DNA of 28,420 nt from a phage: the NCBI GenBank assembly GCA_014816205.1, contig GCA_014816205.1_4096.1; one strand, given 5' to 3'. The notes beneath the pieces were generated by a model. The model saw only the letters and a program-made list of their open reading frames with translations. It ran no database searches and had not been told where the DNA came from. The first letter of the stretch is position 1; every line of letters begins with the position of its first letter. Position numbers and translations under genes: made by a program. Shown here one piece after another: positions 5,697-24,916 of the stretch.

Positions 5697-5844
5697 TTTG
5701 AATCTCCTAACTTTGTGGACCGTCGCACCATTGCCGCCCTACGAGATACATTATTGCAGTACTGATATACTTTGTCAATACTTTTTATTAATAGTTTTCA
5801 CTCCACCAGCAGATAGTTACTCACCGTTATTAACTATATATTTT

Positions 5845-5930
5845 AGATACACCTATGCACCCTGTGGGCTAGTTTTTGTCTATGCGTATATAATAGCAAA
5901 GGGACTGACCGGAGTCAATCCCTTTTTTAT
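5845..5930. repeat. composite intergenic repeat, copy 1 (19-nt motif + terminator hairpin)
   Basis: tgcaccctgtgggctagt about 5857-5874; hairpin gggactgaccggagtcaatccc 5901-5922 followed by tttttt. Confidence 0.6.
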
Positions 5931-5939
5931 TCTTTTTTG

Positions 5940-6140
5940 TTAGATGATTCTCCAATCTTCTACGATGATTGTAAGATACCGGACCAACGATTCTAGTGAT
6001 TCGTGTTCTCGATAGTCTGCCGCTCCACCAGCGGTACAAGTACAGCCGATTAAACCATTTTGCAATTCCTTAATCTGTACATCGATAAGGTTGGCTTTAG
6101 CTTCTTTCAGTACTTCAACCAGGGCGAGAGCGATAGACAT
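5940..6140 (-). CDS. hypothetical protein (66 aa)
   Basis: ORF track; GGAG upstream. Confidence 0.55.
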   Translation of the reverse strand: MSIALALVEVLKEAKANLIDVQIKELQNGLIGCTCTAGGAADYREHESLESLVRYLTIIVEDWRII

Positions 6141-6230
6141 AATGTTTTACTCCAAACTATTGGCGGGAGAACTATTCCCCCGCTCTATGTAAAACATTAT
6201 ACATTACTGGTTAGTACTGTCAAATAGTTT
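6141..6230 (-). promoter_or_regulatory. PeSL-like promoter/hairpin cassette
   Basis: Minus strand TTGACA, 16 bp, TATAAT, then hairpin GCGGGGGAATAGTTCTCCCGC. Confidence 0.5.
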
Positions 6231-6488
6231 TTATGAAATATCTTCGATGTAGTCGGCCCATTTCATTTTTTCAGTACTGTCAATTGCTACCGGATTATTT
6301 GGATCAAACCATTCACCATTACCGCAGTACATACCAACGGCAACGGTTTTATAGCCATCCTGGGCAGTACTCCACGCCATCGCACGATAGATATGGCCTT
6401 TAACTGGTTGCAGTACTGGTAACGTTTTATGGTCTTCTACGTAGGCCATAGCTTGAGGATTTACCCGATATTGTGTGAATTGTTCCAT
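6231..6488 (-). CDS. hypothetical protein (85 aa)
   Basis: ORF track 6231..6521 trimmed to ATG at 6488 with AGGGGA upstream. Confidence 0.55.
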   Translation of the reverse strand: MEQFTQYRVNPQAMAYVEDHKTLPVLQPVKGHIYRAMAWSTAQDGYKTVAVGMYCGNGEWFDPNNPVAIDSTEKMKWADYIEDIS

Positions 6489-6563
6489 GATGTTTCCCCT
6501 TGTAGTTAGTAAAGTTATCATATCAGTACTATCAAGCTATGTCAATAGTACTGAAATAAAACT

Positions 6564-6788
6564 TTAGATTAGATTATTGATGCCGTTGATGGTAGACTCG
6601 CTTTCTTCTTTCTCCCATTGGCGGTAGTACTTCCATGCTTCATGATATGTGGCGATTAGTTCATCTTTTTGATCCTGAGTACATGCCAGTACTGAATCAC
6701 GATGAGCGGTGTTATAGATAGAATCGAATGATTTCTTCTCTTCTGCCAGGTTAGCTACTTCCCGCATCAGTTCATCAAAGTTAGCCAT
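6564..6788 (-). CDS. hypothetical protein (74 aa)
   Basis: ORF track; AAGGAG upstream; starts MA. Confidence 0.6.
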   Translation of the reverse strand: MANFDELMREVANLAEEKKSFDSIYNTAHRDSVLACTQDQKDELIATYHEAWKYYRQWEKEESESTINGINNLI

Positions 6789-6852
6789 TTTAGTACTCCT
6801 TTTAGTGGGGGAGGATATCTCCCCCTATGCAAAACATTATACTTTGTTTTAG
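6789..6852 (-). promoter_or_regulatory. PeSL-like promoter/hairpin cassette
   Basis: Minus strand TTGCAA...TATAAT then hairpin GGGGGAGATATCCTCCCCC. Confidence 0.5.
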
Positions 6853-7119
6853 TTACTTTGCAAGTACTTTTTTCATATAAAGATTATATTCTACACCGCC
6901 GTAACCTTCTAAGATGATATGTTTTGCGTTATCACGTTTGCACATAGTGAAACCGTTGTTGATGTGTTCTGCATTTTCCAGGGCTACATCACCGATTGCA
7001 GCACATACAGCACTTACAACGGTATTCCGCAAAGTACTGGTATCATTAGCGGTCATAGTAGTTTGCAGTACTACGTTGTCGTATACGTGTGCATTGATAG
7101 TGATTTCGATAGTGTTCAT
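6853..7119 (-). CDS. hypothetical protein (88 aa)
   Basis: ORF track. Confidence 0.55.
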   Translation of the reverse strand: MNTIEITINAHVYDNVVLQTTMTANDTSTLRNTVVSAVCAAIGDVALENAEHINNGFTMCKRDNAKHIILEGYGGVEYNLYMKKVLAK

Positions 7120-7205
7120 GGTGTATCTCCCGGACTGGCGGGAGAACTATTCCCCCGCTCTATGTAAAACATTATACGTTAATCTAACTACAATGCAAGT
7201 ACTTT
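7120..7205 (-). promoter_or_regulatory. PeSL-like promoter/hairpin cassette
   Basis: gcgggagaactattcccccgc hairpin plus RC of TATAAT and TTGCAT. Confidence 0.5.
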
Positions 7206-7397
7206 TTAAATTTTATTTCCGATATAGTCCGGTCTATTCTTTTCGGTCATACGCTTTGCTAATGTTTGCATATGGCTTATTGCGTTTAATGTGTCTTCCT
7301 CCAGGGATGAATCAACATAATCAGGATCATTCTTAACCTTGCAATGGTTATGATAGCGTAGTACTGCCAGTACTTTTTTAACTTCTTCAACTGTCAT
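7206..7397 (-). CDS. hypothetical protein (63 aa)
   Basis: ORF track; ATGA overlap with 7394.. gene. Confidence 0.55.
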   Translation of the reverse strand: MTVEEVKKVLAVLRYHNHCKVKNDPDYVDSSLEEDTLNAISHMQTLAKRMTEKNRPDYIGNKI

Positions 7398-7666
7398 AAT
7401 AAGTATTCCACTTCGTTAGCTTTCAGGTTAGTATCAATCATCAGTGGATTTTTGTAGTTCACAAAACGATTAGTTTTCTCGATAGCGAATCCCATATAAT
7501 CCAGCTTACTAACAGTACATTCATTCTTAAAAACTTCTTTCGCTGCATTGATGGCTGATTCAATTGATAACCGACCATCTAAGTTAATGTTTCCAAATGA
7601 TCCACCAGCAGAAGTAGGATTACCGTTCATATCTTTAATGATCATAGTAGCGGAGTAGCTAGACAT
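7394..7666 (-). CDS. hypothetical protein (90 aa)
   Basis: ORF track. Confidence 0.6.
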   Translation of the reverse strand: MSSYSATMIIKDMNGNPTSAGGSFGNINLDGRLSIESAINAAKEVFKNECTVSKLDYMGFAIEKTNRFVNYKNPLMIDTNLKANEVEYLL

Positions 7667-7750
7667 AATTTTGTTTCCTTTTAGTATCGGGGAGAACTAT
7701 TCTCCCCTTGATGTAAACTATTATACAGTACTAAGATACTTTGTCAATAC
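7667..7750 (-). promoter_or_regulatory. PeSL-like promoter/hairpin cassette
   Basis: ggggagaactattctcccc hairpin; minus strand TTGACA, 16 bp, TATAAT; 3' part shared with cassettes at 10524 and 10795. Confidence 0.55.
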
Positions 7751-7972
7751 TTAATTACGTTTAAAATGATATGTGCCTTTATCATCCTGTACGCCCCATA
7801 CTGATTTACCATCAACACCAGTGAAACCGGATTGTAATTCAATATGGAAACCATTATTATCAACTACAAAAACTTTTTTATTTTCATCCCGATAACATTG
7901 ATATTCTGAATCAACATTAAAGGCCGCATCATTCAGAAGATTGGAAGCGTAAATGCAAGTCATTGTAGTCAT
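7751..7972 (-). CDS. hypothetical protein (73 aa)
   Basis: ORF track 7751..8047 trimmed to ATG at 7972 with AAGGA upstream; track N-terminus is the translated hairpin. Confidence 0.55.
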   Translation of the reverse strand: MTTMTCIYASNLLNDAAFNVDSEYQCYRDENKKVFVVDNNGFHIELQSGFTGVDGKSVWGVQDDKGTYHFKRN

Positions 7973-8107
7973 GATTTTATTCCTTATTGCCAGGGAGAAC
8001 CATTTCCCCCTCTCGATATAAAACATTATACTTGATTCTAAGTACAATGCAAGTACTTTTTATCAAATACTTTAAAATAGTTTTCAGTACTGAATACTTA
8101 TATAATA

Positions 8108-8197
8108 GATACACTTATGCACCCTGTGGGTCAGTGAGTTATCTCTCAATGAATATATATTAGCAAAGGGACTGACCGGAGTCAATCCCTTTTTTAA
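8108..8197. repeat. composite intergenic repeat, copy 2
   Basis: tgcaccctgtgggtcagtg 8118-8136; hairpin gggactgaccggagtcaatccc 8168-8189 plus tttttt. Confidence 0.6.
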
Positions 8198-8203
8198 TCT
8201 TTT

Positions 8204-8788
8204 TTATCGTGTTATAGTTACGGCTTTTACATCACGCTTTTTATAGTACTGATTCCAGATATTGCGGGTTAAACCGTAATCAAGTACTTTAATAAGTCCA
8301 TTACGATCCTGGCCGATATTCTGTTTTCTGATATCTCTTATCGTTAGTGTTGATAATGTATCATCGACGTGTTGTAGTGCATCAGCAAAGCGGTGCTGGC
8401 GTTCAATGGCATTACGTTTAATATTGTACTTTAATTCGTTGCACGCGTTAACGTGCTTCACACTGCCTTTACTTGCAGTACTCAACCGATCCATAACGAT
8501 AAACATATTATCAGGATCGCATAAATGCATATGCACCTTTGCAAAGTACTGTTTCAATTGAGGGCGGTCATAGTCTAAAAAATTCCATACCTTACATTCA
8601 GTTTCATTTTGTTCTACACCCGCATCACAATTGGCGACCTTAATCACTAACCGATCATTTAAAGCGAATACAATACGGGAAGAACCCGCACCGATGATCT
8701 CCAGACCAGCTAACCGACAAGCTGAAAGGATCTCTTTGTTGGTTTCCATTTCTGACAGGGTACGGATGAATTTAGTATAATTACGCAT
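8204..8788 (-). CDS. minimal protein-kinase-like protein (194 aa)
   Basis: ORF track 8204..8845 trimmed to ATG at 8788 with AAGGAG upstream; motifs IGAGSSRIVF (Gly loop), VIKVA (Lys), IRDIRKQNIG (catalytic loop), KVLDYGL (DFG-like). Confidence 0.55.
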   Translation of the reverse strand: MRNYTKFIRTLSEMETNKEILSACRLAGLEIIGAGSSRIVFALNDRLVIKVANCDAGVEQNETECKVWNFLDYDRPQLKQYFAKVHMHLCDPDNMFIVMDRLSTASKGSVKHVNACNELKYNIKRNAIERQHRFADALQHVDDTLSTLTIRDIRKQNIGQDRNGLIKVLDYGLTRNIWNQYYKKRDVKAVTITR

Positions 8789-8819
8789 TGCATGTTCTCC
8801 TTGAGTTAATGAAACTATC

Positions 8820-9062
8820 TTACAGTACTTTACTATCAATGGCAACCACTTTTTTCACACTAACCGCGTGAATCACTTCCTTAGTGTTTTTAGTACTGAA
8901 TACTTTCGCTGTTCCATGTTCTACTGCAATGCGATAACGACCGTTAACATCAACCATATTAATAAAGTCCGGTGTACTAAACCGAGTAGTACGGCATTTC
9001 AGTACTGTTAACAGTTCCACCAGCGATGTAGTTTCTTTGATACGTTTTTCTAAAGTAATCAT
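8820..9062 (-). CDS. hypothetical protein (80 aa)
   Basis: ORF track 8820..9119 trimmed to ATG at 9062; track N-terminus MTVLKCF... is the translated promoter region. Confidence 0.55.
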   Translation of the reverse strand: MITLEKRIKETTSLVELLTVLKCRTTRFSTPDFINMVDVNGRYRIAVEHGTAKVFSTKNTKEVIHAVSVKKVVAIDSKVL

Positions 9063-9119
9063 TTTGTTTTCCCCGTGTTGGTATGTACATATAGTACTAA
9101 AACATTTGAGTACTGTCAA

Positions 9120-9338
9120 TTAGATAATTGCATATTTCTTTAAAGATAATGCGTCTTGGGTTGGCTGATACTCAATGCCGTTACCGTTATCTACTTTAAC
9201 TAATAAACCTTTGTCAATTAGTTTTTTAATAGTCCTTTGGCCTTGTTGAAAATTGGTAAAATGTGAATCATTACGAAAGGTATAACCGTGCTTAACTGCT
9301 TCATCAATAGTTTTCTTTTCGATTTTAGATAATTTCAT
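9120..9338 (-). CDS. hypothetical protein (72 aa)
   Basis: ORF track 9120..9395 trimmed to ATG at 9338; same promoter-module artefact as 8820 gene. Confidence 0.55.
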   Translation of the reverse strand: MKLSKIEKKTIDEAVKHGYTFRNDSHFTNFQQGQRTIKKLIDKGLLVKVDNGNGIEYQPTQDALSLKKYAII

Positions 9339-9391
9339 TTTGTTTCTCCCGTGTTGGTATGTGTACATAATACTAAAACAATTGAGTACTG

Positions 9392-9646
9392 TCAACGTGA
9401 TATTAGTTTTATTTTCTTATTATATTGTTGATGTTCATAAAGGTTTATCTTTCCTGTGTTCTCTATTACTATTCTGTTGTTAGTGTCTACATCGATTACA
9501 CGCAGTTTTCCGTTGCTTAACTTCCTTGGTAATAGGTTACCATTAATAAACTCATTAGCAAGCTGTACGGCCTTTGTGATGATTCTCTGTGGTGCTTTAT
9601 AGTGTACCCGCAAGATATTATCTTTAGATAGTTGTACCTTAATCAT
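9392..9646 (-). CDS. hypothetical protein (84 aa)
   Basis: ORF track; AGGAT upstream. Confidence 0.55.
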   Translation of the reverse strand: MIKVQLSKDNILRVHYKAPQRIITKAVQLANEFINGNLLPRKLSNGKLRVIDVDTNNRIVIENTGKINLYEHQQYNKKIKLISR

Positions 9647-9661
9647 TTTAGTTTATCCTAT

Positions 9662-9686
9662 AAAAAAGGCGGGAACTGATCCCGCC
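9662..9686 (-). terminator. rho-independent terminator
   Basis: Hairpin ggcgggaactgatcccgcc 9668-9686 followed on minus strand by TTTTTT; immediately downstream of 9709.. gene. Confidence 0.65.
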
Positions 9687-9708
9687 GTGTTGTTAGTACT
9701 GCAAGTTA

Positions 9709-10104
9709 TTAGATAACCTGGCGGCGTTTACTGTATACTGTTACACGATTACCCTTACGGTCGTGTCGGATCTCTTTCTGGTTGCGTACCAGTTCACTTG
9801 GACGCTTAAGGTTTGCCAGGTGATCCGCGTGAGTCCAAGCGGTATGGTTTGTCTGTACTTTGATATCAGAATCAGCGATAAATTCATCTTGTGCGTTAAG
9901 TACTGCCGCCAGTAAATCCGCTCGTTTTAGTTCTGCTGCTGTTAGTACTGGCTCCGGTGAATTCACAATATCAGAGATTTCTTTGAACTGTACGGCCCAG
10001 CGTTGGCCTTTCGGTGCATCTTTGCCCATGTCTTTAAATGCTGCTCCTTCCTCGCGTGCAACAATACGGGCAGCTTCACGGGTAGCGTAGAATTTAGTAA
10101 TCAT
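9709..10104 (-). CDS. hypothetical protein (131 aa); paralog of 22751..23014
   Basis: ORF track trimmed to ATG at 10104 with AGGA 8 nt upstream; shares KFYATREAARI...FKDMG and RKGNRVTVY with 22751 gene. Confidence 0.6.
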   Translation of the reverse strand: MITKFYATREAARIVAREEGAAFKDMGKDAPKGQRWAVQFKEISDIVNSPEPVLTAAELKRADLLAAVLNAQDEFIADSDIKVQTNHTAWTHADHLANLKRPSELVRNQKEIRHDRKGNRVTVYSKRRQVI

Positions 10105-10199
10105 GGTATACATCCTATTAGTTAAGTTAGTACTACAAGTTAGAGTCTATTATAAAGTACTATCTGGGCAATGTCAAATAGTACTTTAAATGGATTCTA

Positions 10200-10523
10200 T
10201 TACATATCTTTCTTACGTTTTACATCGTAGTATCGAACTGTTATTTCTTTGTTAATCTCTTTTTCGATGCGGTGAATAACTTTTTCTTTCGGGTTGAAAC
10301 CTATAACGGTTTCTTTAATGATCTCCAAGCCCGTGTATTCGCCTTGTGTGCCGTAACCGTATGTAAAGGTTTCATGTCCCAGGTCTTCCCAACGATCACC
10401 AATTAACGCAGACACGTAGCAAGAGTGGTAAGTATTGCCGTGTGAATCAGTCCACCGATTAACTTTAATGTCAAAGGAGGTTACAATTTTCAGTTCTACT
10501 TTCTGGGCAAGGATCATAGCCAT
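10200..10523 (-). CDS. hypothetical protein (107 aa); paralog of 16617..16940
   Basis: ORF track trimmed to ATG at 10523; shares RWTDSxGNTYHSC and FTYGY and KRKKD with 16617 gene. Confidence 0.6.
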   Translation of the reverse strand: MAMILAQKVELKIVTSFDIKVNRWTDSHGNTYHSCYVSALIGDRWEDLGHETFTYGYGTQGEYTGLEIIKETVIGFNPKEKVIHRIEKEINKEITVRYYDVKRKKDM

Positions 10524-10616
10524 TTTTATTTCTCTCTCTTTGTTAGGAGGGGAACCGTTTCCCCTCACTTGATGTAAACTATTATACAGTACTAAGATAC
10601 TTTGTCAATACTTATT
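10519..10616 (-). promoter_or_regulatory. PeSL-like cassette, near-identical direct repeat of 10790-10886
   Basis: About 95 bp matching the cassette at 10790-10886 except in the hairpin arms. Confidence 0.6.
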
Positions 10617-10794
10617 TTTTGGAAAGTTTACGCATTAATTCTACGCTTTCTTGTGAACGTTTTGCTACCTGGCAAGCTGCATGGACAGTAAACATTTTTG
10701 TATAGTCTGACGGTTTGTCACCGAACCGAGCGGCACGTTCACGGGCACTTGGAACTAATACGATTTCTTTCTTACAGATAGTGCATTTAGCCAT
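10612..10794 (-). CDS. small Cys-containing protein (60 aa), possible zinc-binding
   Basis: ORF track; CTIC...HAAC pattern. Confidence 0.5.
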   Translation of the reverse strand: MAKCTICKKEIVLVPSARERAARFGDKPSDYTKMFTVHAACQVAKRSQESVELMRKLSKK

Positions 10795-10886
10795 TTTTAT
10801 TTCTCTCTCTTTGTTAGGAGGGGAACCATTCCCCCTCTCGATGTAAACTATTATACAGTACTAAGATACTTTGTCAATACTTAATT
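10790..10886 (-). promoter_or_regulatory. PeSL-like cassette, direct repeat of 10519-10616
   Basis: Minus strand TTGACA...TATAAT, hairpin GGGGAATGGTTCCCC, leader AACAAAGAGAGAGAAATAAAAATG. Confidence 0.6.
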
Positions 10887-11156
10887 ATTGTAAATGTCGT
10901 GAATAGTGATAAAGTTTTTACGACCGTAAACCTGCAAATCAATATCAATGTAGTGCTTATCTAGTACATCCTCGACGCTTAACGCGGTGTCGTGGATATC
11001 TTCGTAGAATTGAGGATCTACAATCTTGCTTAAGTCATCCGGCGTTAACTCATCGTTAAGCCGTTGAACCGCCTGGATATCTGCTTCACGTTTCCAGTCT
11101 TCCAGGTTAGTAGTCAGTACTTGTTCGATTTCGTTAGCTGTCAGTAGAATCCGCAT
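10881..11156 (-). CDS. hypothetical acidic protein (91 aa)
   Basis: ORF track. Confidence 0.55.
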   Translation of the reverse strand: MRILLTANEIEQVLTTNLEDWKREADIQAVQRLNDELTPDDLSKIVDPQFYEDIHDTALSVEDVLDKHYIDIDLQVYGRKNFITIHDIYNN

Positions 11157-11225
11157 TTTAATGTTTCCTTATCAGTGGTTGATGTAAGTATTATACTCGT
11201 TTACTTTCTATTGTCAAACTATTTT

Positions 11226-11298
11226 ATCAGGGGAGGTTTTCTTATGTCTTACTCCTGGACTACTTAACGGGGTTACTTGTTTCGTTCCCCGTCCTGAT
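11226..11298 (-). promoter_or_regulatory. structured leader element, copy 1
   Basis: Closing stem ATCAGG/CCTGAT enclosing hairpin ACGGGG...CCCCGT; sits between two tandem minus-strand promoters. Confidence 0.4.
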
Positions 11299-11379
11299 GT
11301 AAAACATTATACTTGATTCTAAGTACAATGCAAGTACTTTTTTAAAAATAGTTTTCAGTACTAGCCACCAGCAAACAAT

Positions 11380-11466
11380 AGATACATTTATGCACCCTGT
11401 GGGCTGATTTGTTTCTATGCGTATATAATAGCAAAGGGACTGACCGGAGTCAATCCCTTTTTCAAT
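11380..11466. repeat. composite intergenic repeat, copy 3
   Basis: tgcaccctgtgggctgatt 11391-11409; hairpin 11436-11457 plus ttttt. Confidence 0.6.
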
Positions 11467-11471
11467 TATTT

Positions 11472-11621
11472 TTAAACTTGTTTCGGGTTGCGATAGGTGA
11501 TAGCGTTCGGGTACATTTGTTTAATGTTATTCCATGCCTGGTTAACATTGTAACCACTTGAGCGAATCAGTTGGTTGCTACCGACACCTTGAAACACTAC
11601 TTCGAATAAGAATTCTTTCAT
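11472..11621 (-). CDS. small protein (49 aa), absent from ORF track
   Basis: Hand translation codon by codon: MKEFLFEVVFQGVGSNQLIRSSGYNVNQAWNNIKQMYPNAITYRNPKQV; start overlaps upstream TGA. Confidence 0.45.
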   Translation of the reverse strand: MKEFLFEVVFQGVGSNQLIRSSGYNVNQAWNNIKQMYPNAITYRNPKQV

Positions 11622-12110: not shown

Positions 12111-12195
12111 TTTTCTTTCCTCTCAGTGGGGAGAATCATTTCTCCCCTTCATGTAACTTATTATACAGTACTATAATCTATTGTCAAATACTTTT
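12111..12195 (-). promoter_or_regulatory. PeSL-like promoter/hairpin cassette
   Basis: ggggagaatcatttctcccc hairpin; minus strand TTGACA...TATAAT. Confidence 0.5.
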
Positions 12196-12384
12196 TTAAA
12201 GTTTATGAATCAATTCTTTATCTAAGCGATAGCGTACATTATTAATGGTAACAGCATTATTTTTAATGCTACGCTGTACAGGTCCACCAGCAATAACAAA
12301 TGTTGCTTTATTACCCCGAACAATGATAGCACTTCCAGGATTACCGAAATCATCTTGTACTAAAATACTTGATAAGTTTTCCAT
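12196..12384 (-). CDS. hypothetical protein (62 aa)
   Basis: ORF track 12196..12390 trimmed to second ATG (12384), which has GAGGA at proper spacing. Confidence 0.55.
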   Translation of the reverse strand: MENLSSILVQDDFGNPGSAIIVRGNKATFVIAGGPVQRSIKNNAVTINNVRYRLDKELIHKL

Positions 12385-12462
12385 TTTCATTTCCTCTTAG
12401 TAGGGGAAGATGTTTCCCCTTGATGTAAGTACTATAACACTACTGAAAACTAAATGCAAGTA

Positions 12463-12819
12463 CTATGATAAAATCATGATAGGATATTCACTATCGATCA
12501 GTACCTCGAATCCGAAACCTTCGTACCATTCTTTAAGATTGAAGGCGTTATCTTCTCCTGTATCGCATTCTAAAATGATACAATCTGAATCATCGGCGGC
12601 ATCAATAAAGGCATTCATTAATTCGTTACCTTCACCATTGCCCCGACTATCAGGATCAACATAAAGAGAATCAATAAACGCTACACGGTCATAATCAAGA
12701 TCCGGTGCAATGATTCCACGTTTAACAAACCAGTACTGCAATTGTGCTACTTTGCCCTGTACTTGATAACCAGTGATCTCGCCATTGTCAGTAGTACGCG
12801 TGATATGTTGTATTCCCAT
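12463..12819 (-). CDS. GNAT-family acetyltransferase-like protein (118 aa)
   Basis: ORF track; RGNGEG resembles the acetyl-CoA-binding motif and WYEGFGFE the C-terminal GNAT motif; GAGGA upstream. Confidence 0.5.
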   Translation of the reverse strand: MGIQHITRTTDNGEITGYQVQGKVAQLQYWFVKRGIIAPDLDYDRVAFIDSLYVDPDSRGNGEGNELMNAFIDAADDSDCIILECDTGEDNAFNLKEWYEGFGFEVLIDSEYPIMILS

Positions 12820-12882: not shown

Positions 12883-13140
12883 TTATCTCATAGATCTATG
12901 CCAACAATTACGCGGGGGACGTTTAAAAGTACTATCATGATCCTCCTGGCAAGTTATGCAGTACTTACATCCCTTAACGGCCTGGCGTCGTTTCTCAGGG
13001 ATTATATCGCCGCAGTCGAGGCAATGTATCAGTGATTCTATTTGTGCGTTAATTTGCTTTCTAGCGTGGTTAACGGCGGCCTGAATCACTGCGTTGATCT
13101 CGTCTTGTTCGGCCCCGTCTTTCGCGTATCCTACTGCCAT
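12883..13140 (-). CDS. TraR/DksA-family C4 zinc-finger protein (85 aa)
   Basis: ORF track; CLDCGDIIPEKRR...CKYCITCQ matches the CxxC-x17-CxxC TraR/DksA zinc-finger pattern. Confidence 0.55.
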   Translation of the reverse strand: MAVGYAKDGAEQDEINAVIQAAVNHARKQINAQIESLIHCLDCGDIIPEKRRQAVKGCKYCITCQEDHDSTFKRPPRNCWHRSMR

Positions 13141-13669: not shown

Positions 13670-13774
13670 TGTTAAACGTCCTGTAACGCATTCTAACGAG
13701 ATAAACGGTTTAGTACTGGCATTGTATAGGGTAATGAATTAAAGTCCACCAGCGTTAACCAGTGGGCTATAATC

Positions 13775-17782: not shown

Positions 17783-18231
17783 TTTTTAATTCCTATTCAG
17801 TAGTTGATGTATGTATTATGTCAGTACTTAAAACTATTGTCAAACTATTTTTTAAAATTTATCAATGATTGATGCCGTTTCATTGATAGTCTTGCCGTGT
17901 TTTGCACACGCGATAACTGCTTTAAATTCCTTTGATGACCAATCTTTCTTGCTGCATACTGACATTACTTGTAACGTGAAACAATCCAGTTCATAAGTAT
18001 TCATCTTTAAATCCTCAGTTAGTTAAGGTGTCTCGCCTTGATGTAATTAATTATACGCTAATCTCTTAATCGTGCAAGTACTTTTTATTACTTTTTGTAA
18101 AATACTTTAAACACTCTCAATCGCTTTCTAACGTCCTTAACGCCACCAGCTAGGGCAATGTATCAGATAATCAGTTTAATGCGTTAGAATCGATTCTAGG
18201 CGGTGCTAGTGGACTGGAATACTATAGACAC

Positions 18232-18992: not shown

Positions 18993-19009
18993 AGTGATTC
19001 AGTACTATA

Positions 19010-19309
19010 TTATAAACAGTTAATTACTCCGGTGTGCGTTACTTTCTCAGTATCCATAACAGTGACCGAACCGCGTTTAGTACTTGCATCGTAATAAATT
19101 GTCGTGCTACCTTTTTCGTCTTCTTCATGGAACGGCCCGTTTTTAAATGCTTCTGGCTGGATCTCTAAATCCTTTAAAACAATCTCGCCAGTACTTTCAT
19201 TGGTCATCGCTACAGTGCACTGAATGAATTTTTCACTACTTACATCTAACGACGCATTAACAGCGAAAGAGGAAACAGATAAAGCCAGGGCGATGATTGC
19301 AATTTTCAT
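19010..19309 (-). CDS. secreted or periplasmic small protein with N-terminal signal peptide (99 aa)
   Basis: ORF track; MKIAIIALALSVSSFAVNA has a hydrophobic core and an AxA-type cleavage site. Confidence 0.6.
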   Translation of the reverse strand: MKIAIIALALSVSSFAVNASLDVSSEKFIQCTVAMTNESTGEIVLKDLEIQPEAFKNGPFHEEDEKGSTTIYYDASTKRGSVTVMDTEKVTHTGVINCL

Positions 19310-19393
19310 TTGATTATCCTTAGTTACCAGGGGGAACCGCTCCCCCTTGCGATGTAAAATATTATACAGTACTAAAAACTATTATCAAGTACT
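19310..19393 (-). promoter_or_regulatory. PeSL-like promoter/hairpin cassette
   Basis: gggggaaccgctccccc hairpin; RC of TATAAT. Confidence 0.5.
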
Positions 19394-19630
19394 TTATGAT
19401 TTTTTATAAAACATTTCGGCAGTGATATTTTTACCCGTTGGTTGTACTTTATCCAGAATTTTTTGATGCCCTGGCCGTCCAAATGAATATGATCCGTAAA
19501 CCGTAAACCAGTAGTTACCCTCAGTGTTTACATGTACAGCACAATAGGGAACGCCCCGCGATTCATCACTAGTAAAGTGTGATACCGTTCCCGTTACATT
19601 CGCAGACGTTGATTTGATTTGTTCGAGCAT
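19394..19630 (-). CDS. hypothetical protein (78 aa)
   Basis: ORF track. Confidence 0.6.
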   Translation of the reverse strand: MLEQIKSTSANVTGTVSHFTSDESRGVPYCAVHVNTEGNYWFTVYGSYSFGRPGHQKILDKVQPTGKNITAEMFYKKS

Positions 19631-19738
19631 TTTCTTATTCCTTAGTTACCAGGGGAACCGCTCCCCCTATGCAAAACATTATACGCGTTTAAAAACTAAT
19701 TGCAAGTATTTTAATAAAAAGTATTTGAAAAATAATTG

Positions 19739-19767
19739 TTGACAACTGCATCCAGTACTGGCATAAT
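19739..19767 (+). promoter_or_regulatory. plus-strand sigma70-like promoter
   Basis: ttgaca 19739-19744, 17-bp spacer, cataat 19762-19767; no plus-strand ORF follows. Confidence 0.45.
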
Positions 19768-19773
19768 TACTAC

Positions 19774-19880
19774 ATAAAGACGATACAGTCACTAACCCAC
19801 AGGGTGCATAGATCCGTCTATTAAATGATTCAGTACTGAAAAAGTAACGGGGAGTTATTATCTCCCCGCGTTGTTATTTG
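19774..19880 (+). ncRNA. candidate small non-coding RNA (about 100 nt)
   Basis: Runs from the 19739 promoter to hairpin cggggagttattatctccccg (19848-19868) plus U-rich tail; contains the 19-nt motif; only a 4-codon ORF. Confidence 0.3.
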
Positions 19881-20095
19881 GTAAGGTATAAACAGAAGTC
19901 ACCTTTATTTGCTACGCCGCCAGTGTAACGCGATGAATAGTTAGAAATATCTTGTACTTCTGCTATTACCAGTGTATCATCATTCATTTCGTCGCAGAAG
20001 CAAACGGCTGGATCTTTTACGCCGATATTGTCGGCATGTTCCCGCATAGATTTAACCAGTGCTTCCAGTTGAGAAAGAGTAGTGATATTAGCCAT
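19874..20095 (-). CDS. hypothetical protein (73 aa)
   Basis: ORF track 19874..20125 trimmed to ATG at 20095. Confidence 0.55.
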   Translation of the reverse strand: MANITTLSQLEALVKSMREHADNIGVKDPAVCFCDEMNDDTLVIAEVQDISNYSSRYTGGVANKGDFCLYLTK

Positions 20096-20179
20096 TGTAT
20101 TTTCCTCATTACCAGGGAGAACCATTTCTCCCCTCTATGTAAACTATTATACAGTACTAAAAACTAATTGCAAGTACTT
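20096..20179 (-). promoter_or_regulatory. PeSL-like promoter/hairpin cassette
   Basis: gggagaaccatttctccc hairpin; RC of TATAAT and TTGCAA. Confidence 0.5.
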
Positions 20180-20365
20180 TTAATTAAATTTTGTACCGTC
20201 CAGTAATGAAGCATTACGCATCATTCGCCCAGCACGATCCCAGCTAGTAGGATCGGGAATCCCTTGCAACTCGTTAGGGGAGATCTCAATCTTGATCCCT
20301 ACATTGATAACAGTCATTCCAGCCTTTGCAGCTTGCTCTCGGATAACCTCAGATAATGTTGTCAT
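20180..20365 (-). CDS. hypothetical protein (61 aa)
   Basis: ORF track 20180..20407 trimmed to ATG at 20365 with AGGAG 8 nt upstream; track M1 is a TTG. Confidence 0.55.
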   Translation of the reverse strand: MTTLSEVIREQAAKAGMTVINVGIKIEISPNELQGIPDPTSWDRAGRMMRNASLLDGTKFN

Positions 20366-20426
20366 GATTAAAGCTCCTGTATCGCTTATAATGTTTGTCA
20401 GTACCAATATAAAGTATTATACGCCT

Positions 20427-20639
20427 TTATTGCTTAGTGTCCAGTACTTTTAAAACATAATCAAAGACACCACGCACATCATTGATCATCGCCTGGCGGT
20501 TAGCAGGTAACGCATCAGGATCGCCACTATCCCAGGCATTAATAAAGCCACCTAAATCATGGAATACTTTATTCTGTAAGCCGATTAACTGTAATTCTTT
20601 TTCTTCAAGCTCTTTGATGCGGTCGATTAAATCACTCAT
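20427..20639 (-). CDS. hypothetical protein (70 aa)
   Basis: ORF track 20427..20675 trimmed to ATG at 20639 with GAGGATTATCTAATG context. Confidence 0.55.
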   Translation of the reverse strand: MSDLIDRIKELEEKELQLIGLQNKVFHDLGGFINAWDSGDPDALPANRQAMINDVRGVFDYVLKVLDTKQ

Positions 20640-20656
20640 TAGATAATCCTCAGTAC

Positions 20657-20941
20657 TTAACTGTAAGATCCGCAACGGTCGCAGTAGTGCCCGTCCTCGT
20701 CATCGTCAACGAATTGACCGACGAAATGATCTACTTTCGCTTTGAGGTTATTATAATCGTTTTCTACTTCCTTTAAACGTTCCTGGTAGTATTCCAGTGC
20801 CTTAAGATACGCCGCCTCAGTCGTTTTCTCACGCATAGCTAAATTCATTCCACGCGTTTCATCAAATAGCCAATAACCATCGGTGCATTGACTGATAGAT
20901 AATGACTTGCTTAGTACTGTATAGTTAATTACTTTACCCAT
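20657..20941 (-). CDS. hypothetical protein (94 aa)
   Basis: ORF track; same GAGGATTATCTAATG start context as 20427 gene; C-terminal HYCDRCG. Confidence 0.6.
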   Translation of the reverse strand: MGKVINYTVLSKSLSISQCTDGYWLFDETRGMNLAMREKTTEAAYLKALEYYQERLKEVENDYNNLKAKVDHFVGQFVDDDEDGHYCDRCGSYS

Positions 20942-21033
20942 TAGATAATCCTCAGTAAAGGCGGGAACTATTCCCCGCCTCGATATAAAGTATTATACGT
21001 TAATCTAACTACAATGCAAGTACTTTTTAAATT
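20942..21033 (-). promoter_or_regulatory. PeSL-like promoter/hairpin cassette
   Basis: gcgggaactattccccgc hairpin; RC of TATAAT and TTGCAT. Confidence 0.5.
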
Positions 21034-21300
21034 TTATAATCCTTTTACTGCATCAGGTGCGACTACGCCATCAATGTATTGAACATCGTTTTCCACTTCA
21101 CGGGCGGCATCATTCAGCAGATCAAAATTAAATTCCATTTCTTCCAGATCATCGAAATCAGGCTCATAACCATTAATTGTTGAATAAGTCCAAGTACCTT
21201 TTTCATAAGTTACGACACTTACATCAGGGAAGAAATCTTGCACATGATCCATCGCATCCCGAACCAATTGATGTGCAGTTGTGATATTTAAAGTTTTCAT
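21034..21300 (-). CDS. hypothetical acidic protein (88 aa)
   Basis: ORF track. Confidence 0.6.
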   Translation of the reverse strand: MKTLNITTAHQLVRDAMDHVQDFFPDVSVVTYEKGTWTYSTINGYEPDFDDLEEMEFNFDLLNDAAREVENDVQYIDGVVAPDAVKGL

Positions 21301-21393
21301 TTTGTTGCCCTTTTAGTGTGAGCGGGGAACCATTCCCCGCCTCGATATAAAGTATTATACGCTTTTAAACTTAGTTTGCAAGTACTTTTTGAA
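21301..21393 (-). promoter_or_regulatory. PeSL-like promoter/hairpin cassette
   Basis: gcggggaaccattccccgc hairpin; RC of TATAAT and TTGCAA. Confidence 0.5.
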
Positions 21394-22005
21394 TTAATAT
21401 TCGATTGATTCTACTACGCCATCAATAACATTGAATTGATACTCGTTACCCTCAATCAGTGCTACGATGTTTTCAGTAGTGAATTGATCCTCATATGCAT
21501 TCTCTAAATCACGGTACAACTTGCGTGACAATTCACGAATAGTTTCAGTGAGTAGTTCCTCAAGCTCATTAACTAACGTTTCTTGTTTTGCGGTTAAATC
21601 AGTGTAAGCCGATTCAATGTACCCGCTTACAGTGTTCTCATGCGAGTAGTGAGAGTGAGAACGCTTTACACTCATCGCCAAATCATCTTCATTCAGCAGG
21701 TGACGGATTGAGCGATACTTAGTTAATGCTCTTACCTTGCGTAAAAACTTCACTGCGTCAACGTGGTCAGTACTGATTGATGCACCGTCACCCTGGGACC
21801 AAAAACCACTGAATTGTATTTCAGCGTCATTAATGCCATATTCCGGTAGTACTGTTTCTTTATAGTATTCAATTTCACTTTCAGAAAAATAATCATCGTT
21901 TAAGTTTTTTTCACGTTCCCGAACCAGTTCGATAGCTGACGTTTTTTGTTCTGCGTTCAATTCAGAAAAAGCCATAACATAAGTAGTAGTAGTGATAGTT
22001 TTCAT
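21394..22005 (-). CDS. hypothetical protein (203 aa)
   Basis: ORF track; GAGGG 8 nt upstream; preceded by an unusually long multi-promoter leader. Confidence 0.65.
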   Translation of the reverse strand: MKTITTTTYVMAFSELNAEQKTSAIELVREREKNLNDDYFSESEIEYYKETVLPEYGINDAEIQFSGFWSQGDGASISTDHVDAVKFLRKVRALTKYRSIRHLLNEDDLAMSVKRSHSHYSHENTVSGYIESAYTDLTAKQETLVNELEELLTETIRELSRKLYRDLENAYEDQFTTENIVALIEGNEYQFNVIDGVVESIEY

Positions 22006-22073
22006 TTTGTAACCCTCATTCAGTAGTTGATGTAAGTATTATACGCTTTTAAAAACAATTGTCAAACTATTTT

Positions 22074-22147
22074 ATCAGGGGAGTTTTTCGTGTGCCTTAC
22101 TCCTGGGCTACTTAACGGGCAGTTACTTATTTCGTCCCCCGTCCTGA
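22074..22147 (-). promoter_or_regulatory. structured leader element, copy 2
   Basis: About 85% identical to 11226-11298, same closing stem ATCAGG/CCTGAT; again between two tandem promoters. Confidence 0.4.
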
Positions 22148-22230
22148 TGTAAAACATTATACGCCTTTAAACATAGTTTGCAAGTACTTTTTATCAAATA
22201 GTTTTCAGTACTGAATAGTAAAAAAAAGTA

Positions 22231-22259
22231 TTGACAGCACTATCCAGTACTGGTATAAT
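22231..22259 (+). promoter_or_regulatory. plus-strand sigma70-like promoter
   Basis: ttgaca 22231-22236, 17-bp spacer, tataat 22254-22259; two copies of the 19-nt motif downstream in opposite orientation. Confidence 0.45.
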
Positions 22260-22382
22260 ATACCCCATGACAACAGCTAACCCACCGGGTGCACAATTGT
22301 AACTGTACTAAACTACTTTTTCTATAGATACACTCCCGCACCCTATGGGCTACGGCTTATCTGCCAATGAATACATTATGCC

Positions 22383-22413
22383 AGTATTGACAAAATAAGT
22401 CAATACTGGCAAT
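22383..22413. other. perfect 12-bp-stem hairpin
   Basis: gccagtattgac aaaataa gtcaatactggc; stem contains TTGACT, which with CATAAT 17 bp away forms a minus-strand promoter-like site. Confidence 0.5.
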
Positions 22414-22433
22414 TGTAAAGATTTGTAAACTGA

Positions 22434-22664
22434 TTATACTGCAATCGCGTCCAGGCTATAATAATAATAAGTGCCGTATTGGTGTACTTTATTACCTTTT
22501 ATTTCAGTACTGAATGAATCCGAACGATTGGCATATGATGTTAATTTAAAGTACTTTGTTTTGCTGATACGTTGCCATACACCGCAGATCCGCTGTAAGT
22601 AAGTAGTTTTATTAGTGGTAGTATCTTTTACGGTTTTAACTTCAGTCATATACATATTGGTCAT
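22434..22664 (-). CDS. hypothetical protein (76 aa)
   Basis: ORF track; AAGGAG upstream. Confidence 0.6.
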   Translation of the reverse strand: MTNMYMTEVKTVKDTTTNKTTYLQRICGVWQRISKTKYFKLTSYANRSDSFSTEIKGNKVHQYGTYYYYSLDAIAV

Positions 22665-22750
22665 TTTTTTACTCCTTGCTTTAGTGGGGAACTATTCCCC
22701 ACCTGATATAAAGTATTATACGCGTTTAAACTTAGTTTGCAAGTACTTTT
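22665..22750 (-). promoter_or_regulatory. PeSL-like promoter/hairpin cassette
   Basis: ggggaactattcccc hairpin; RC of TATAAT and TTGCAA. Confidence 0.5.
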
Positions 22751-23014
22751 TTATAGTACTGCTATCTTTTTAGTACGGTACACGGTAACACGATTCCCCT
22801 TACGGTCGAGCTTTATTTCTACCACTCGACGCGATACACTAGCAGGACTTTTTAAAGCTGATAGCCAGTACTGTAATGATCTGGCTGTACTACGCTTTAC
22901 AATGGCCCAACGTTTACCACTTGCCGATCCCGCTCCCATATCTTTAAACGTTGCCCCGTCCTGGCGTGCGGCGATCCGAGCTTGTTCACGCGTCGCAAAA
23001 TACTTAATATTCAT
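22751..23014 (-). CDS. hypothetical protein (87 aa); short paralog of 9709..10104
   Basis: ORF track; shared FATREQARIAARQDGATFKDMG and DRKGNRVTVY motifs; AAGGG upstream. Confidence 0.6.
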   Translation of the reverse strand: MNIKYFATREQARIAARQDGATFKDMGAGSASGKRWAIVKRSTARSLQYWLSALKSPASVSRRVVEIKLDRKGNRVTVYRTKKIAVL

Positions 23015-23050
23015 GCTGTTACCCTTATCGTTGGTGTATGAATAAAATCC

Positions 23051-23073
23051 TATTATAAAGTACTATCACCGTG
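23051..23073. promoter_or_regulatory. palindromic operator-like site in promoter region
   Basis: Perfect palindrome agtactatcaccgtgatagtact just upstream of TATAAT; approximate coordinates. Confidence 0.35.
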
Positions 23074-23095
23074 ATAGTACTTTAAATCTATTCTA

Positions 23096-23335
23096 TTACA
23101 TTCCAACCATTGCAGCACGGATCGCCGTAGTGCTATACTTAAAGCCGTCCGGCGTTTTATCTTGTCCAGTCTGTTCTAAAAATAGCATCATATGACGGGC
23201 CGCATCATTGCGATTAGTGTTAGCGGCAATAAAGTCCTGGGCCAACCGGTATAATGATTCATCGTTATTAATCCAAAGGCTTACATTCCATTGAGTTTTG
23301 TTAGCGTGACCTAAGAACATTTTTGATTTAGCCAT
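23096..23335 (-). CDS. hypothetical protein (79 aa)
   Basis: ORF track. Confidence 0.6.
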   Translation of the reverse strand: MAKSKMFLGHANKTQWNVSLWINNDESLYRLAQDFIAANTNRNDAARHMMLFLEQTGQDKTPDGFKYSTTAIRAAMVGM

Positions 23336-23427
23336 TTTTTAATCCTCTTATATAGTGGGGAACTATTCCCCACCTGATGTAAAACATTATACGCTTTTAA
23401 ACTTAGTTTGCAAGTACTTTATTAAAC
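23336..23427 (-). promoter_or_regulatory. PeSL-like promoter/hairpin cassette
   Basis: ggggaactattcccc hairpin; near-duplicate of 22665-22750. Confidence 0.5.
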
Positions 23428-23790
23428 TTATTCGTAAATTTTGCCACTATCAGCCCATACCAGGAAACGAGGCATATTATCCCATGCATCTTGCTTTAAA
23501 TTTAAACCGTGTAATACTTCTGTACTTTCCATTCCTGGTACTGGTTTACTATACACCGCGAACAATTCACCCATATACTGATACGCCATCGTCAAATCAC
23601 TGGCGATCATCTTATGGATCATCGCATCAAGCATCACGGTAGCGGCGTATTGTTCACGCTTAAGCGGTAACATTGCAATAAGTTCCCGATAAGCTGAAAT
23701 GTGAATTTTTACCGTTTCTGCCGGAAGATCTTTCATCTCGTCGCGGAAGTTAACCAGGTTAGCAATAATTTTATTGATTTGAGTCGCCAT
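23428..23790 (-). CDS. hypothetical protein (120 aa)
   Basis: ORF track 23428..23847 trimmed to ATG at 23790; track N-terminus is the translated hairpin. Confidence 0.6.
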   Translation of the reverse strand: MATQINKIIANLVNFRDEMKDLPAETVKIHISAYRELIAMLPLKREQYAATVMLDAMIHKMIASDLTMAYQYMGELFAVYSKPVPGMESTEVLHGLNLKQDAWDNMPRFLVWADSGKIYE

Positions 23791-23880
23791 CGTTTTAATC
23801 TCTCTTAATGTGTAGCGGGAAGTGTTCCCGCTCTCGATGTAAAACATTATACGCTTTTAAACATAGTTTGCAAGTACTTT
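23791..23880 (-). promoter_or_regulatory. PeSL-like promoter/hairpin cassette
   Basis: gcgggaagtgttcccgc hairpin; RC of TATAAT and TTGCAA. Confidence 0.5.
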
Positions 23881-24128
23881 CTACATGTACTTTTAAAATA
23901 GTTTTCTTTCTATATAGGAGTACTATTATTCAGTACTACCAACAACCAGGGGAACTATCTTTCAGTACTGAATCAACCAAATCACTACTACACCCCATAA
24001 AACGGCCTCAGACGCATTCTAACGCATTAATACACCTAAGCTATACATTTGCACCGCCACCAGCTAACCAGGGCTTTACAGACCGTTTAAACGCGTTAAA
24101 TTATTTTCAATTATTTTGTTTTTAGCTA

Positions 24129-24156
24129 TTGACTCAGTACTAAAAAAGCGTATAAT
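24129..24156 (+). promoter_or_regulatory. plus-strand sigma70-like promoter
   Basis: ttgact 24129-24134, 16-bp spacer, tataat 24151-24156. Confidence 0.45.
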
Positions 24157-24343
24157 TACTACATAGACGCGAGAAAGCGGATACCCCAGGGGGTGCCGAG
24201 ATCCGTCCAAAATTCATAAAATTTAAAAAGAATACACTCCCGCACCCTAGCAGGTCAACGCACTTTCTCAGTACTGAATTATAGTACCATAGTACGGCCC
24301 AGGATAGCAAGCAAATTAATTAAAACTTTTTTCATCCAGGGTA

Positions 24344-24371
24344 TTGCTTTATTTTTCCAGTACTGTATAAT
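24344..24371 (+). promoter_or_regulatory. plus-strand sigma70-like promoter (extended -10)
   Basis: ttgctt 24344-24349, 16-bp spacer, tgtataat ending 24371. Confidence 0.45.
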
Positions 24372-24468
24372 AGTTCCATCAAGTCGAGAAAGACTCCAGC
24401 CCACCGGGTGCATAGTTACGCCCAAAATTCAGTACTGAAAAAATTTTTAAAAATATCCGTCCAGGCCG

Positions 24469-24497
24469 TTGACATTGCCCCCAGTTTATAAGATAAT
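24469..24497 (+). promoter_or_regulatory. plus-strand sigma70-like promoter
   Basis: ttgaca 24469-24474, 17-bp spacer, gataat 24492-24497; points into the repeat array. Confidence 0.4.
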
Positions 24498-24594
24498 GAT
24501 TCCAGATTCAGAAAAATCTAACTCCAGATACTGCGGGGAAACTATCCCCACGCGGTAGGGGAACTATTGGAAAAAACAAAATAAAATTTTGATT

Positions 24595-24697
24595 TAGCCG
24601 TCTATACTTCCAGACGTGTAACCATCTAGCCGTTTAGCCGTCCAAACGTCTAGCCATCCAGAAATCTAGCCGTTTAGCCGTCTAGATGGATAGCCAT
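24595..24697. repeat. iteron-like array of 7 TAGCC(G/A)T units
   Basis: TAGCC at 24595, 24627, 24635, 24651, 24667, 24675, 24691; spacings all multiples of 8 bp. Confidence 0.55.
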
Positions 24698-24896
24698 CTT
24701 TACTTCCAGACTTCTGGAGGGCTAGACATATCTACGTCCAAAATCCATCCAGGGTAACTACGCCCAAAATCCGTCAGTACTATACCATAGATCTATCTTT
24801 TGAAAGGGAGTATTCAGTACTGCCATCATAGCCCTCACTATGTTACCCTAGGAGGATGAAGACTATCATGTAGTACTGAATACTGTTAGAGGGAAC

Positions 24897-24916
24897 CCAC
24901 CAGCACAAGCTGGTGG
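24897..24916. other. hairpin whose two arms are the Chi octamer and its complement
   Basis: ccaccagc acaa gctggtgg, a perfect 8-bp stem. Confidence 0.6.

Follow-up and report, generated by a model that had tools for sequence, protein, structure and literature searches.

The window analysed here, a 28,420-bp stretch of phage DNA (NCBI GenBank assembly GCA_014816205.1, contig GCA_014816205.1_4096.1), contains eleven copies of GCTGGTGG, the octamer that the literature identifies as the Chi site of E. coli, and every one of them lies within a 21,051-bp block at 4443-25493 that corresponds to the direct terminal repeat (DTR) of a jumbo coliphage. The array coincides with the DTR, its sites are conserved above background, and comparable clusters recur in other phage genera. 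We consider it reasonably likely that this DTR-confined array has been selected to tame RecBCD at the genome ends and to promote RecA-mediated recombination between the DTR copies, in a manner resembling phage P1.

Identity of the window

Megablast assigned the window to the Asteriusvirus group of jumbo coliphages (121Q, PBECO4, G17, CRJP21 and others), with 90-98% identity. In the complete G17 genome, the first 20,668 bp are repeated at the right end with zero differences. The first 60 nt of the G17 DTR matched the window at 4443, its last 60 nt matched 25434-25493, and the 60 nt preceding its right-hand copy matched 4383-4442; given these boundary matches, the window is an assembly in which the DTR has been collapsed to one copy, two being present on virion DNA. 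A 21,525-bp DTR is annotated in the record of vB_Ec-M-J over the stretch homologous to that of the window. Within this group of phages, the DTR has been backed by PhageTerm and restriction digests in fEgEco12 (PMC13070987), by PhageTerm in Sharanji (PMC11895373) and by sequence coverage in G17 (PMC6563267).

Eleven Chi sites within the terminal repeat

A pattern search of the whole window identified ten copies of GCTGGTGG on the minus strand, which read as CCACCAGC on the plus strand, and a single copy on the plus strand at 24909, exactly the eleven coordinates reported in the first-pass annotation. The sites and one related remnant are as follows.

5803-5810, minus strand: Chi 1, intergenic, flanked by a terminator and the promoter that follows it; distance to the boundary at 4443, 1,360 nt; invariant in five relatives
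6025-6032, minus strand: Chi 2, coding, read as GCT-GGT-GG (Ala-Gly-Gly) in the open reading frame (ORF) 5940-6140; present in four of five relatives, lost in 121Q
7602-7609, minus strand: Chi 3, coding, GCT-GGT-GG, ORF 7394-7666
9017-9024, minus strand: Chi 4, coding, in the other frame (n-CTG-GTG-G), ORF 8820-9062
11365-11372, minus strand: Chi 5, intergenic, about 32 nt upstream of a -35 box
12284-12291, minus strand: Chi 6, coding, GCT-GGT-GG, ORF 12196-12390
13746-13753, minus strand: Chi 7, intergenic, 3′ arm of the RNA hairpin CCACUGGU-UAAC-GCUGGUGG; annotated as a terminator in G17
18143-18150, minus strand: Chi 8, intergenic
18205-18212, plus strand: GCTAGTGG, remnant of a plus-strand Chi, from which it differs by one mismatch; vB_Ec-M-J, CRJP21 and Salmonella phage SD-1_S14 have the intact site
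24057-24064, minus strand: Chi 9, intergenic, 3′ arm of an imperfect hairpin; found only in the window and 121Q
24897-24916, both strands: Chi 10 (arm 24897-24904, minus) and the sole plus-strand Chi (arm 24909-24916, plus), together forming the perfect palindrome CCACCAGC-ACAA-GCTGGTGG

Of the ten minus-strand sites, six fall between genes and four within coding sequence, the latter in two frames. Several copies had earlier been placed in intergenic repeat modules and others within genes; the division between intergenic and genic sites stood, whereas the octamer proved not to be carried by the promoter or hairpin modules. Half of the intergenic sites (13746, 24057 and 24897) constitute the 3′ arms of RNA hairpins, and these hairpins do not have the T-run typical of intrinsic terminators. 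At 24897 the 5′ arm is a perfect complement, confirming the earlier description of 24897 and 24909 as two arms of one hairpin; this Chi/anti-Chi palindrome is invariant in the five relatives and lies 577 nt from the DTR boundary at 25493. The 5′ arms at 13746 and 24057 instead pair through G·U wobbles, so that the hairpin is preserved without a Chi on the opposite strand. The hairpin motif of Chi 7 also occurs at position 20913 of Salmonella phage Munch.

Enrichment and confinement of the octamer

In 100 dinucleotide-preserving shuffles of the window, Chi occurred on average 0.31 times over both strands and never more than twice, in agreement with the first-pass view that the observed number is a large excess over an expectation below one. 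Within the DTR, strand-specific Markov models of orders 0-4 predicted 0.11-0.40 sites on the minus strand (p = 1e-11 to 1e-16), and the expectation for the plus strand was 0.01-0.1 against one observed. When the sites themselves were masked (Markov orders 0-3), the enrichment amounted to 49-92-fold on the minus strand and 13-31-fold on the plus strand. Chi is not the top DTR octamer in the over-representation test; it ranked 15th of all octamers on the DTR coding strand, and those above it were only pieces of the promoter module or of the palindrome CAGTACTG, both described below, some of which reach a raw count of 34 compared with 10 for Chi. No other G+C-rich octamer on that strand was comparably enriched. 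Furthermore, exact Chi outnumbered all 24 of its one-mismatch variants together by 10:2 on the minus strand, the DTR as a whole held three such variants as against eleven exact matches, and the flanks of the ten minus-strand sites were unrelated, differing from site to site. From these patterns, the octamer itself appears to be the selected unit.

The complete genome of G17 allowed the DTR to be compared with unique DNA. Each G17 DTR copy carries nine minus-strand and one plus-strand Chi (0.48 per kb), whereas the 329,481-bp unique part carries ten and nine, respectively (0.058 per kb), an 8-fold lower density without strand bias. With one DTR copy counted, 10 of the 29 G17 sites fall within 5.9% of the sequence (P = 3.6e-6). 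In the unique part, which consists mostly of same-strand genes, Chi is only about twofold above the expectation at Markov orders 3-4. No Chi was found in the 7.4 kb of unique DNA that flank the DTR in the window (1-4442 and 25494-28420), nor in the flanks of 121Q and SD-1_S14 (about 27-29 kb each). The other 94% of the G17 genome is thus kept Chi-poor. Counted over a whole genome and set against composition, the enrichment held in the DTR, and the unique part showed no strand bias.

Conservation and turnover

We compared the array among five relatives, vB_Ec-M-J, G17, CRJP21, 121Q and Salmonella phage SD-1_S14. In all five, eight of the ten minus-strand sites are invariant, as is the one on the plus strand, compared with 33.6% of random DTR octamers (binomial P = 0.0036 for eight of ten), a pattern that suggests purifying selection on the Chi sites. 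The exceptions were 6025, lost in 121Q, and 24057, whose restriction to the window and 121Q indicates site turnover. Despite this turnover, the total was held at 10-11 Chi per relative genome.

Recurrence in other genera

Equivalent clusters were observed in three further phages, from genera whose hosts are enteric or enteric-like, so that the Chi cluster recurs in four genera, that of the window included. In Munch, the PhageTerm-defined DTR of 21,296 bp contains 11 Chi on the coding strand and two on the other (p = 3e-11), compared with seven in 79 kb sampled outside it. Klebsiella phage RaK2 carries 8 + 1 Chi (p = 4e-8) in a G+C-elevated, promoter-rich block of 20 kb at the syntenic position, and one in 30 kb sampled elsewhere. 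The Mimasvirus XbC2 carries 7 + 2 Chi over its initial 20 kb, including one at 216 nt from the start of the record, and three in the next 25 kb. Munch has a Chi/anti-Chi palindrome of its own, 484-503 nt from the DTR end; a Chi of the opposite orientation lies 577 nt from the outer end in the window, 484 nt in Munch and 216 nt in XbC2.

These clusters are not copies of one ancestral set of positions. Alignment to the window DTR by blastn covers only about 13% of the Munch and RaK2 blocks, and a comparison of positions with those two phages yielded no orthologous Chi. The same design at differing positions in at least three genera is therefore a strong argument for selection. Several Munch Chi lie inside promoter spacers; those at 3711, 18398 and 20279 stand between the -35 and -10 elements of early promoters, a position that is sequence-neutral, as if the octamer had been placed wherever sequence can vary. 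XbC2, described as a Xanthomonas phage, had been considered as a control for host specificity; it proved to be a Mimasvirus close to Cronobacter phage GAP32 with the same cluster, which extends the generality of the pattern and leaves XbC2 useless as a negative control. A scan of IMG/VR for CCACCAGC-N4-GCTGGTGG returned 46 scattered contigs, one of them from a jumbo phage (121Q), which by a rough estimate is about the chance level and is uninformative.

Strand bias

The 10:1 count reported by the first-pass annotation is real, and part of it is a matter of strand composition: with the sites masked, composition alone favours the G-rich coding strand at 58-80%, depending on Markov order. Pooled over the four lineages, Chi on the coding and the other strand numbered 36:6, a ratio exceeding composition at Markov orders 0 and 1 (mono- and dinucleotide; p = 1e-4 and 0.012). 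Orientation-specific selection was considered and set aside, as it is not established beyond composition at orders 2-3. The minority orientation is itself enriched 11-49-fold (six pooled against about 0.3 expected, p ~1e-6), and both orientations therefore appear to be selected. The asymmetry in numbers matters for RecBCD; that it is designed is not proven.

Geometry of the array and its proposed role

According to the literature, RecBCD responds to Chi only when it arrives from the 3′ side of the octamer. That the host's RecBCD uses this octamer was judged from the closest relatives of the window, which were isolated on E. coli and Salmonella. Salmonella and Klebsiella use GCTGGTGG as well, as McKittrick and Smith reportedly found in 1989; the Pseudomonas Chi octamer, GCTGGCGC, differs from it. 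From the end at 4443, which is the left end in the orientation of G17 and the one toward which the DTR genes are transcribed, RecBCD meets ten Chi, beginning 1,360 bp in and with seven in the initial 9.3 kb. From the end at 25493 it meets one, that of the palindrome, after 577 bp of gene-free DNA, and in G17 no second Chi in that orientation follows from the matching end for about 60 kb. Either physical end thus presents a correctly oriented Chi within 0.6-1.4 kb. The earlier proposal that the sites would be active for RecBCD entering from the low-coordinate side was geometrically right, and that side is a physical genome end only because 4443 is the DTR boundary; viewed against both ends, ten sites face 4443 and one faces 25493. 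RecBCD recognizes a Chi with a frequency of 30-40% per site, at which ten sites amount to a cumulative recognition of 97-99%. Sites were skewed toward the entry end (15 of 21 in the proximal half, window and Munch pooled; p = 0.039; Kolmogorov-Smirnov p = 0.07), a trend that is suggestive only.

RecBCD is the probable reader of these sites, and by analogy with what has been proposed for P1, the benefit would be end protection together with DTR recombination. Under this model, RecBCD would load on a free genome end and degrade or unwind the DNA inward until it reached a correctly oriented Chi, of which there are ten from 4443 and one from 25493. There it would switch from destruction to loading RecA on the 3′ tail, and the DNA lost up to that point would be limited to sequence of which another copy remains. 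The tail, being DTR sequence, could then invade the second DTR copy, whether on its own molecule or on a sister, yielding circles or concatemers for replication and packaging. A cell has few RecBCD molecules, and their Chi-triggered inactivation may in addition protect the remainder of the genome. Ordinary restriction enzymes cut the DNA of these phages as predicted (PMC13070987), and Chi should therefore be readable in it. RecBCD-related selection, as the first-pass annotation had proposed, is strongly backed by the confinement to the DTR, the above-background conservation and the recurrence in three other genera; the function itself, protection from RecBCD or recombination, is our inference.

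Several observations weigh against this reading. G17 and Sharanji annotate a UvsX/RecA-like recombinase, an SbcCD/gp46-47-like nuclease, endonuclease VII and a RecD/Dda-like helicase, and in the published pattern a high Chi density goes with the absence of a phage recombination (Rec) module (Zheng et al. 2025, PMC12315714). Among the phages of that study, none proved to be inhibited by RecBCD, which makes the need for protection uncertain. The lone Chi met from the end at 25493 would stop only a minority of RecBCD molecules. The pooled ratio of 36:6 is not clearly beyond composition at Markov orders 2-3 (tri- and tetranucleotide, p = 0.14), and the difference between the two ends may therefore be no product of design. 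Three intergenic Chi double as RNA hairpin arms, and some may therefore be kept for termination. T5, the model phage with a long DTR, has only two Chi in its repeat, facing the last-entering end. XbC2 was reported on Xanthomonas, so that either its natural host is enteric-like or the link to the host is looser. Finally, our literature search gave no data on a role of RecBCD or RecA in the growth of these phages.

We also looked for proteins that could serve the same end. No RecBCD inhibitor or gp2-like protein was recognized in a non-exhaustive scan of 13 proteins, and no T4 gp2-like end protector was found beside the gp4 homologue, whose neighbours are tail-tube proteins. The larger DTR ORFs scanned matched only a GNAT acetyltransferase, a DksA/TraR zinc-finger protein and, below threshold, a kinase.

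High Chi numbers in phages with recombination genes run against the rule of 'no Rec module, high Chi', and this points to a role before phage gene expression, which would be to protect the incoming early block, to inactivate RecBCD and/or to seed DTR-DTR recombination. By analogy with the first-step transfer of T5, we speculate that the ten-site end at 4443 enters the cell first. A broader combination of ideas can be built on this, which as a whole we hold to be doubtful: the DTR of RaK2-like jumbo phages would be T5-style, first-entering pre-early DNA whose end is guarded by a protein-free Chi array; the array would disable the few RecBCD molecules and yet not set off defences, such as retron-type guards, that respond to RecBCD inhibition, and would limit the capture of CRISPR spacers from the entering end; one-ended RecA-mediated invasion would circularize the 350-kb genome before a phage recombinase exists; and the orientation of the array would predict which genome end enters first.

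Alternative explanations

The most serious competitor, which we nevertheless regard as unlikely, is that the array is purely a shield or decoy, stopping RecBCD from degrading incoming pre-early DNA, with UvsX-type machinery performing all recombination; it may also inactivate RecBCD in trans and shorten the stretch open to CRISPR spacer harvest. The phages do encode their own recombination functions, the array covers the early-gene block, which is needed before any phage-encoded inhibitor could exist, ten sites would give a cumulative recognition of 97-99% at 30-40% per site, and Chi is described in the cited literature as acting in trans in cells. Yet the limitation of Chi to duplicated DNA is an exact prediction of a recombination role and is not required of a shield, one end has a single Chi, and Zheng et al. 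found no RecBCD-inhibited phage (PMC12315714). Sequence data alone cannot separate a shield from the combined role in end protection and DTR recombination that we favour.

It is improbable that the octamer serves another reader or structure, as the site of a DNA-binding protein or the arm of a terminator hairpin, its identity with Chi being coincidental. The arms of stable RNA hairpins at three of six intergenic sites, where ARNOLD called two terminators in G17, would fit such a role, as would the motif CCACTGGTTAACGCTGGTGG, which is common to the window and Munch, and the retention of the octamer in XbC2, nominally a Xanthomonas phage. However, seven of the ten sites lie outside hairpins, the hairpins have no T-run of an intrinsic terminator, the four coding sites occupy two frames, and several Munch sites stand in promoter spacers; moreover, it would be very surprising for chance to yield, in four phage genera, exactly the octamer that E. 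coli, Salmonella and Klebsiella use as Chi. More improbable still is a functionless by-product of G+C content, a G-rich coding strand, codon usage, module duplication or captured host DNA. The DTR is indeed richer in G+C than the rest of the genome (38.4% vs 33.8% in G17), composition favours the coding strand at 58-80%, and the DTR harbours many repeat families. An origin in the promoter and hairpin repeat families was rejected on the unrelated Chi flanks, and one in codon usage or composition was ruled out by the masked and unmasked Markov models (49-92-fold after masking at orders 0-3), the octamer ranking, in which no G+C-rich octamer is similarly enriched, the 10:2 ratio of exact to one-mismatch words and the merely twofold excess of Chi in 329 kb of mostly same-strand genes. 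Megablast found no match to the DTR in 5,426 complete E. coli genomes, and the DTR is therefore not captured host DNA; the Munch and RaK2 clusters, in addition, are non-orthologous. The by-product explanation is thus largely refuted already.

Organisation of the terminal repeat and its flanks

The array is embedded in the following landmarks of the window.

4443-25493: DTR; about 50 short early genes, every one on the minus strand and with its own sigma70-like promoter module
1-4442, minus strand: unique DNA adjoining the right-hand DTR copy, with packed paralogous genes of about 70 aa; no Chi
25494-28420, minus strand: unique DNA after the left-hand DTR copy; no Chi
24414-25493: gene-free outer kilobase of the DTR, with an array of 11 TAGCCGTC units and 10-bp TGATTA-type repeats near the boundary

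Between 5298 and 25144, the minus strand carries 16-22 copies of a promoter module consisting of TTGCAA or TTGACA, a 17-nt spacer, TATAAT and TGTTTTACAT (repeat families D1-D7). These modules are followed by a G-rich stem-loop in the 5′ untranslated region (GGGGAGAA...TTCTCCCC) directly ahead of the ribosome-binding site, and together they make up a dense array of near-identical early transcription units. The most over-represented octamer of the DTR is the palindrome CAGTACTG, which contains the ScaI site AGTACT; it occurs 32 times against about 4.6 expected, mostly adjoining promoter modules (for example at 5757-5764, 10587-10594 and 12166-12173), and may be an operator or other protein-binding site. 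The flanks at 1-4375 and 25747-28338 consist of tandem paralogous genes of about 60-90 aa (repeat families D8, D11, D14 and D15) without individual promoters, and because these are lacking, expression of the flanking arrays probably depends on read-through from DTR promoters; for the array at 1-4375, such read-through would have to come from the right-hand DTR copy or take place on a circular or concatemeric genome.

In the gene-free outer kilobase, about 11 copies of TAGCCGTC form an 8-bp tandem array at 24595-24685, and TGATTA-type 10-bp repeats occur at 25406-25429 and 25574-25632, on either side of the boundary at 25493. We regard the repeats of this region (24414-25493 and both sides of 25493) as candidate packaging/terminase or injection signals. 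In relatives, the first gene likewise begins 1.3-1.8 kb from the genome end. In all four lineages, G+C is higher in the terminal repeat or early block than elsewhere in the genome, with values, beyond that of G17 given above, of about 37% vs 34% in Munch, 35-37% vs 26-29% in RaK2 and 41% vs 35% in XbC2. Proteins encoded by the DTR include a 213-aa product (8204-8845, minus strand) with a sub-threshold match to protein kinases (Pkinase, E = 0.003) and an annotation as Ser/Thr kinase in phage Turkey3, the GNAT acetyltransferase (12463-12819) and the DksA/TraR zinc-finger protein (12883-13140); all three are possible host-takeover functions.

Comparison with known systems

The closest precedent is the P1 family (P1, P7 and D6), in which Chi lie near the ends and both RecBCD and RecA are needed to circularize terminally redundant DNA (10.1101/2021.07.08.451572; PMC12315714). 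The window phage group shares with P1 a linear, terminally redundant genome, about one Chi per 2 kb where the redundancy lies, sites in coding and non-coding DNA alike, active Chi for RecBCD from either end and a proposed outcome in recombination between terminal repeats. P1 differs in being temperate, with headful packaging and a variable, permuted redundancy; its Chi are near-random in orientation over about 40 kb and constitute the most frequent octamer, and its dependence on RecBCD and RecA has been shown experimentally. The window group, unlike P1, comprises virulent 350-kb myoviruses with an exact, invariant 21-kb DTR and a recombinase of their own, in which Chi are confined to the DTR and mostly co-oriented with its genes (10:1, and 36:6 over the four lineages).

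The lambdoid phage LLS carries 23 Chi, 20 of them co-oriented, clustered at the RecBCD-entry end at about one per 1.9 kb (Zheng et al. 2025), and lambdoids combining high Chi with no Rec module were described by Bobay et al. 2013, as cited in Zheng et al. 2025. Many co-oriented, end-clustered Chi at a similar density are common to LLS and the jumbo phages. LLS differs in being a cos phage that lacks terminal redundancy and has neither a recombination module nor a RecBCD inhibitor; its growth has been shown to be helped by RecBCD. The jumbo phages, in contrast, are Rec+ and keep 94% of the genome poor in Chi. A correctly oriented Chi near a free double-strand end also spares linear DNA from RecBCD in lambda red gam chi+, in plasmid rolling-circle tails and in Chi-flanked linear templates. 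Dabert et al. in 1992 and Kuzminov et al. in 1994 are said to have described such Chi protection of linear DNA. These engineered or mutant cases involve one or few sites, whereas the array described here is natural, conserved and multi-site.

T5 is similar in layout alone, with a long exact DTR and short pre-early genes with host promoters that point to the terminus, and the gene-free, repeat-rich stretch at the far side of the repeat recalls the T5 'injection stop signal'. The first 50 kb of T5 (NC_005859) contain only two Chi, at 8127 and 8689, both on the plus strand and both in the 10.2-kb terminal repeat; they are oriented for RecBCD entering the right-hand end, not the first-entering left end. 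With two Chi in the repeat, none in the next 40 kb and the opposite end faced, T5 was rejected as a Chi parallel, being weak and ambiguous. The authors of the fEgEco12 study guessed that the DTR circularizes by homologous recombination and made no mention of Chi or RecBCD (PMC13070987), and our literature search found no paper linking Chi with jumbo-phage terminal repeats. This suggests that an end strategy based on host Chi, known from P1 and some lambda-like phages, is unreported for giant lytic phages.

Implications

The array departs from known cases in four respects: the phages are virulent, the DTR is long and exact, Chi is kept from the other 94% of the genome, and the phages have a recombinase and nucleases of their own. 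The finding bears on the engineering and therapeutic use of Asteriusvirus-type phages, for instance where synthetic or rebooted linear genomes are to be designed, and offers a tractable test for the disputed question of whether RecBCD threatens incoming phage DNA. Such a sequence signature, host Chi restricted to the terminal repeat, could moreover help in finding genome termini, in deducing which end enters and in guessing the host clade of uncultured jumbo phages. The Chi-rich phages described to date are temperate or lambdoid and have no recombination genes of their own. If the proposed role is correct, the host-Chi strategy would extend to virulent giant phages that possess recombinases, and it would indicate a need during the opening minutes of infection, ahead of phage gene activity.

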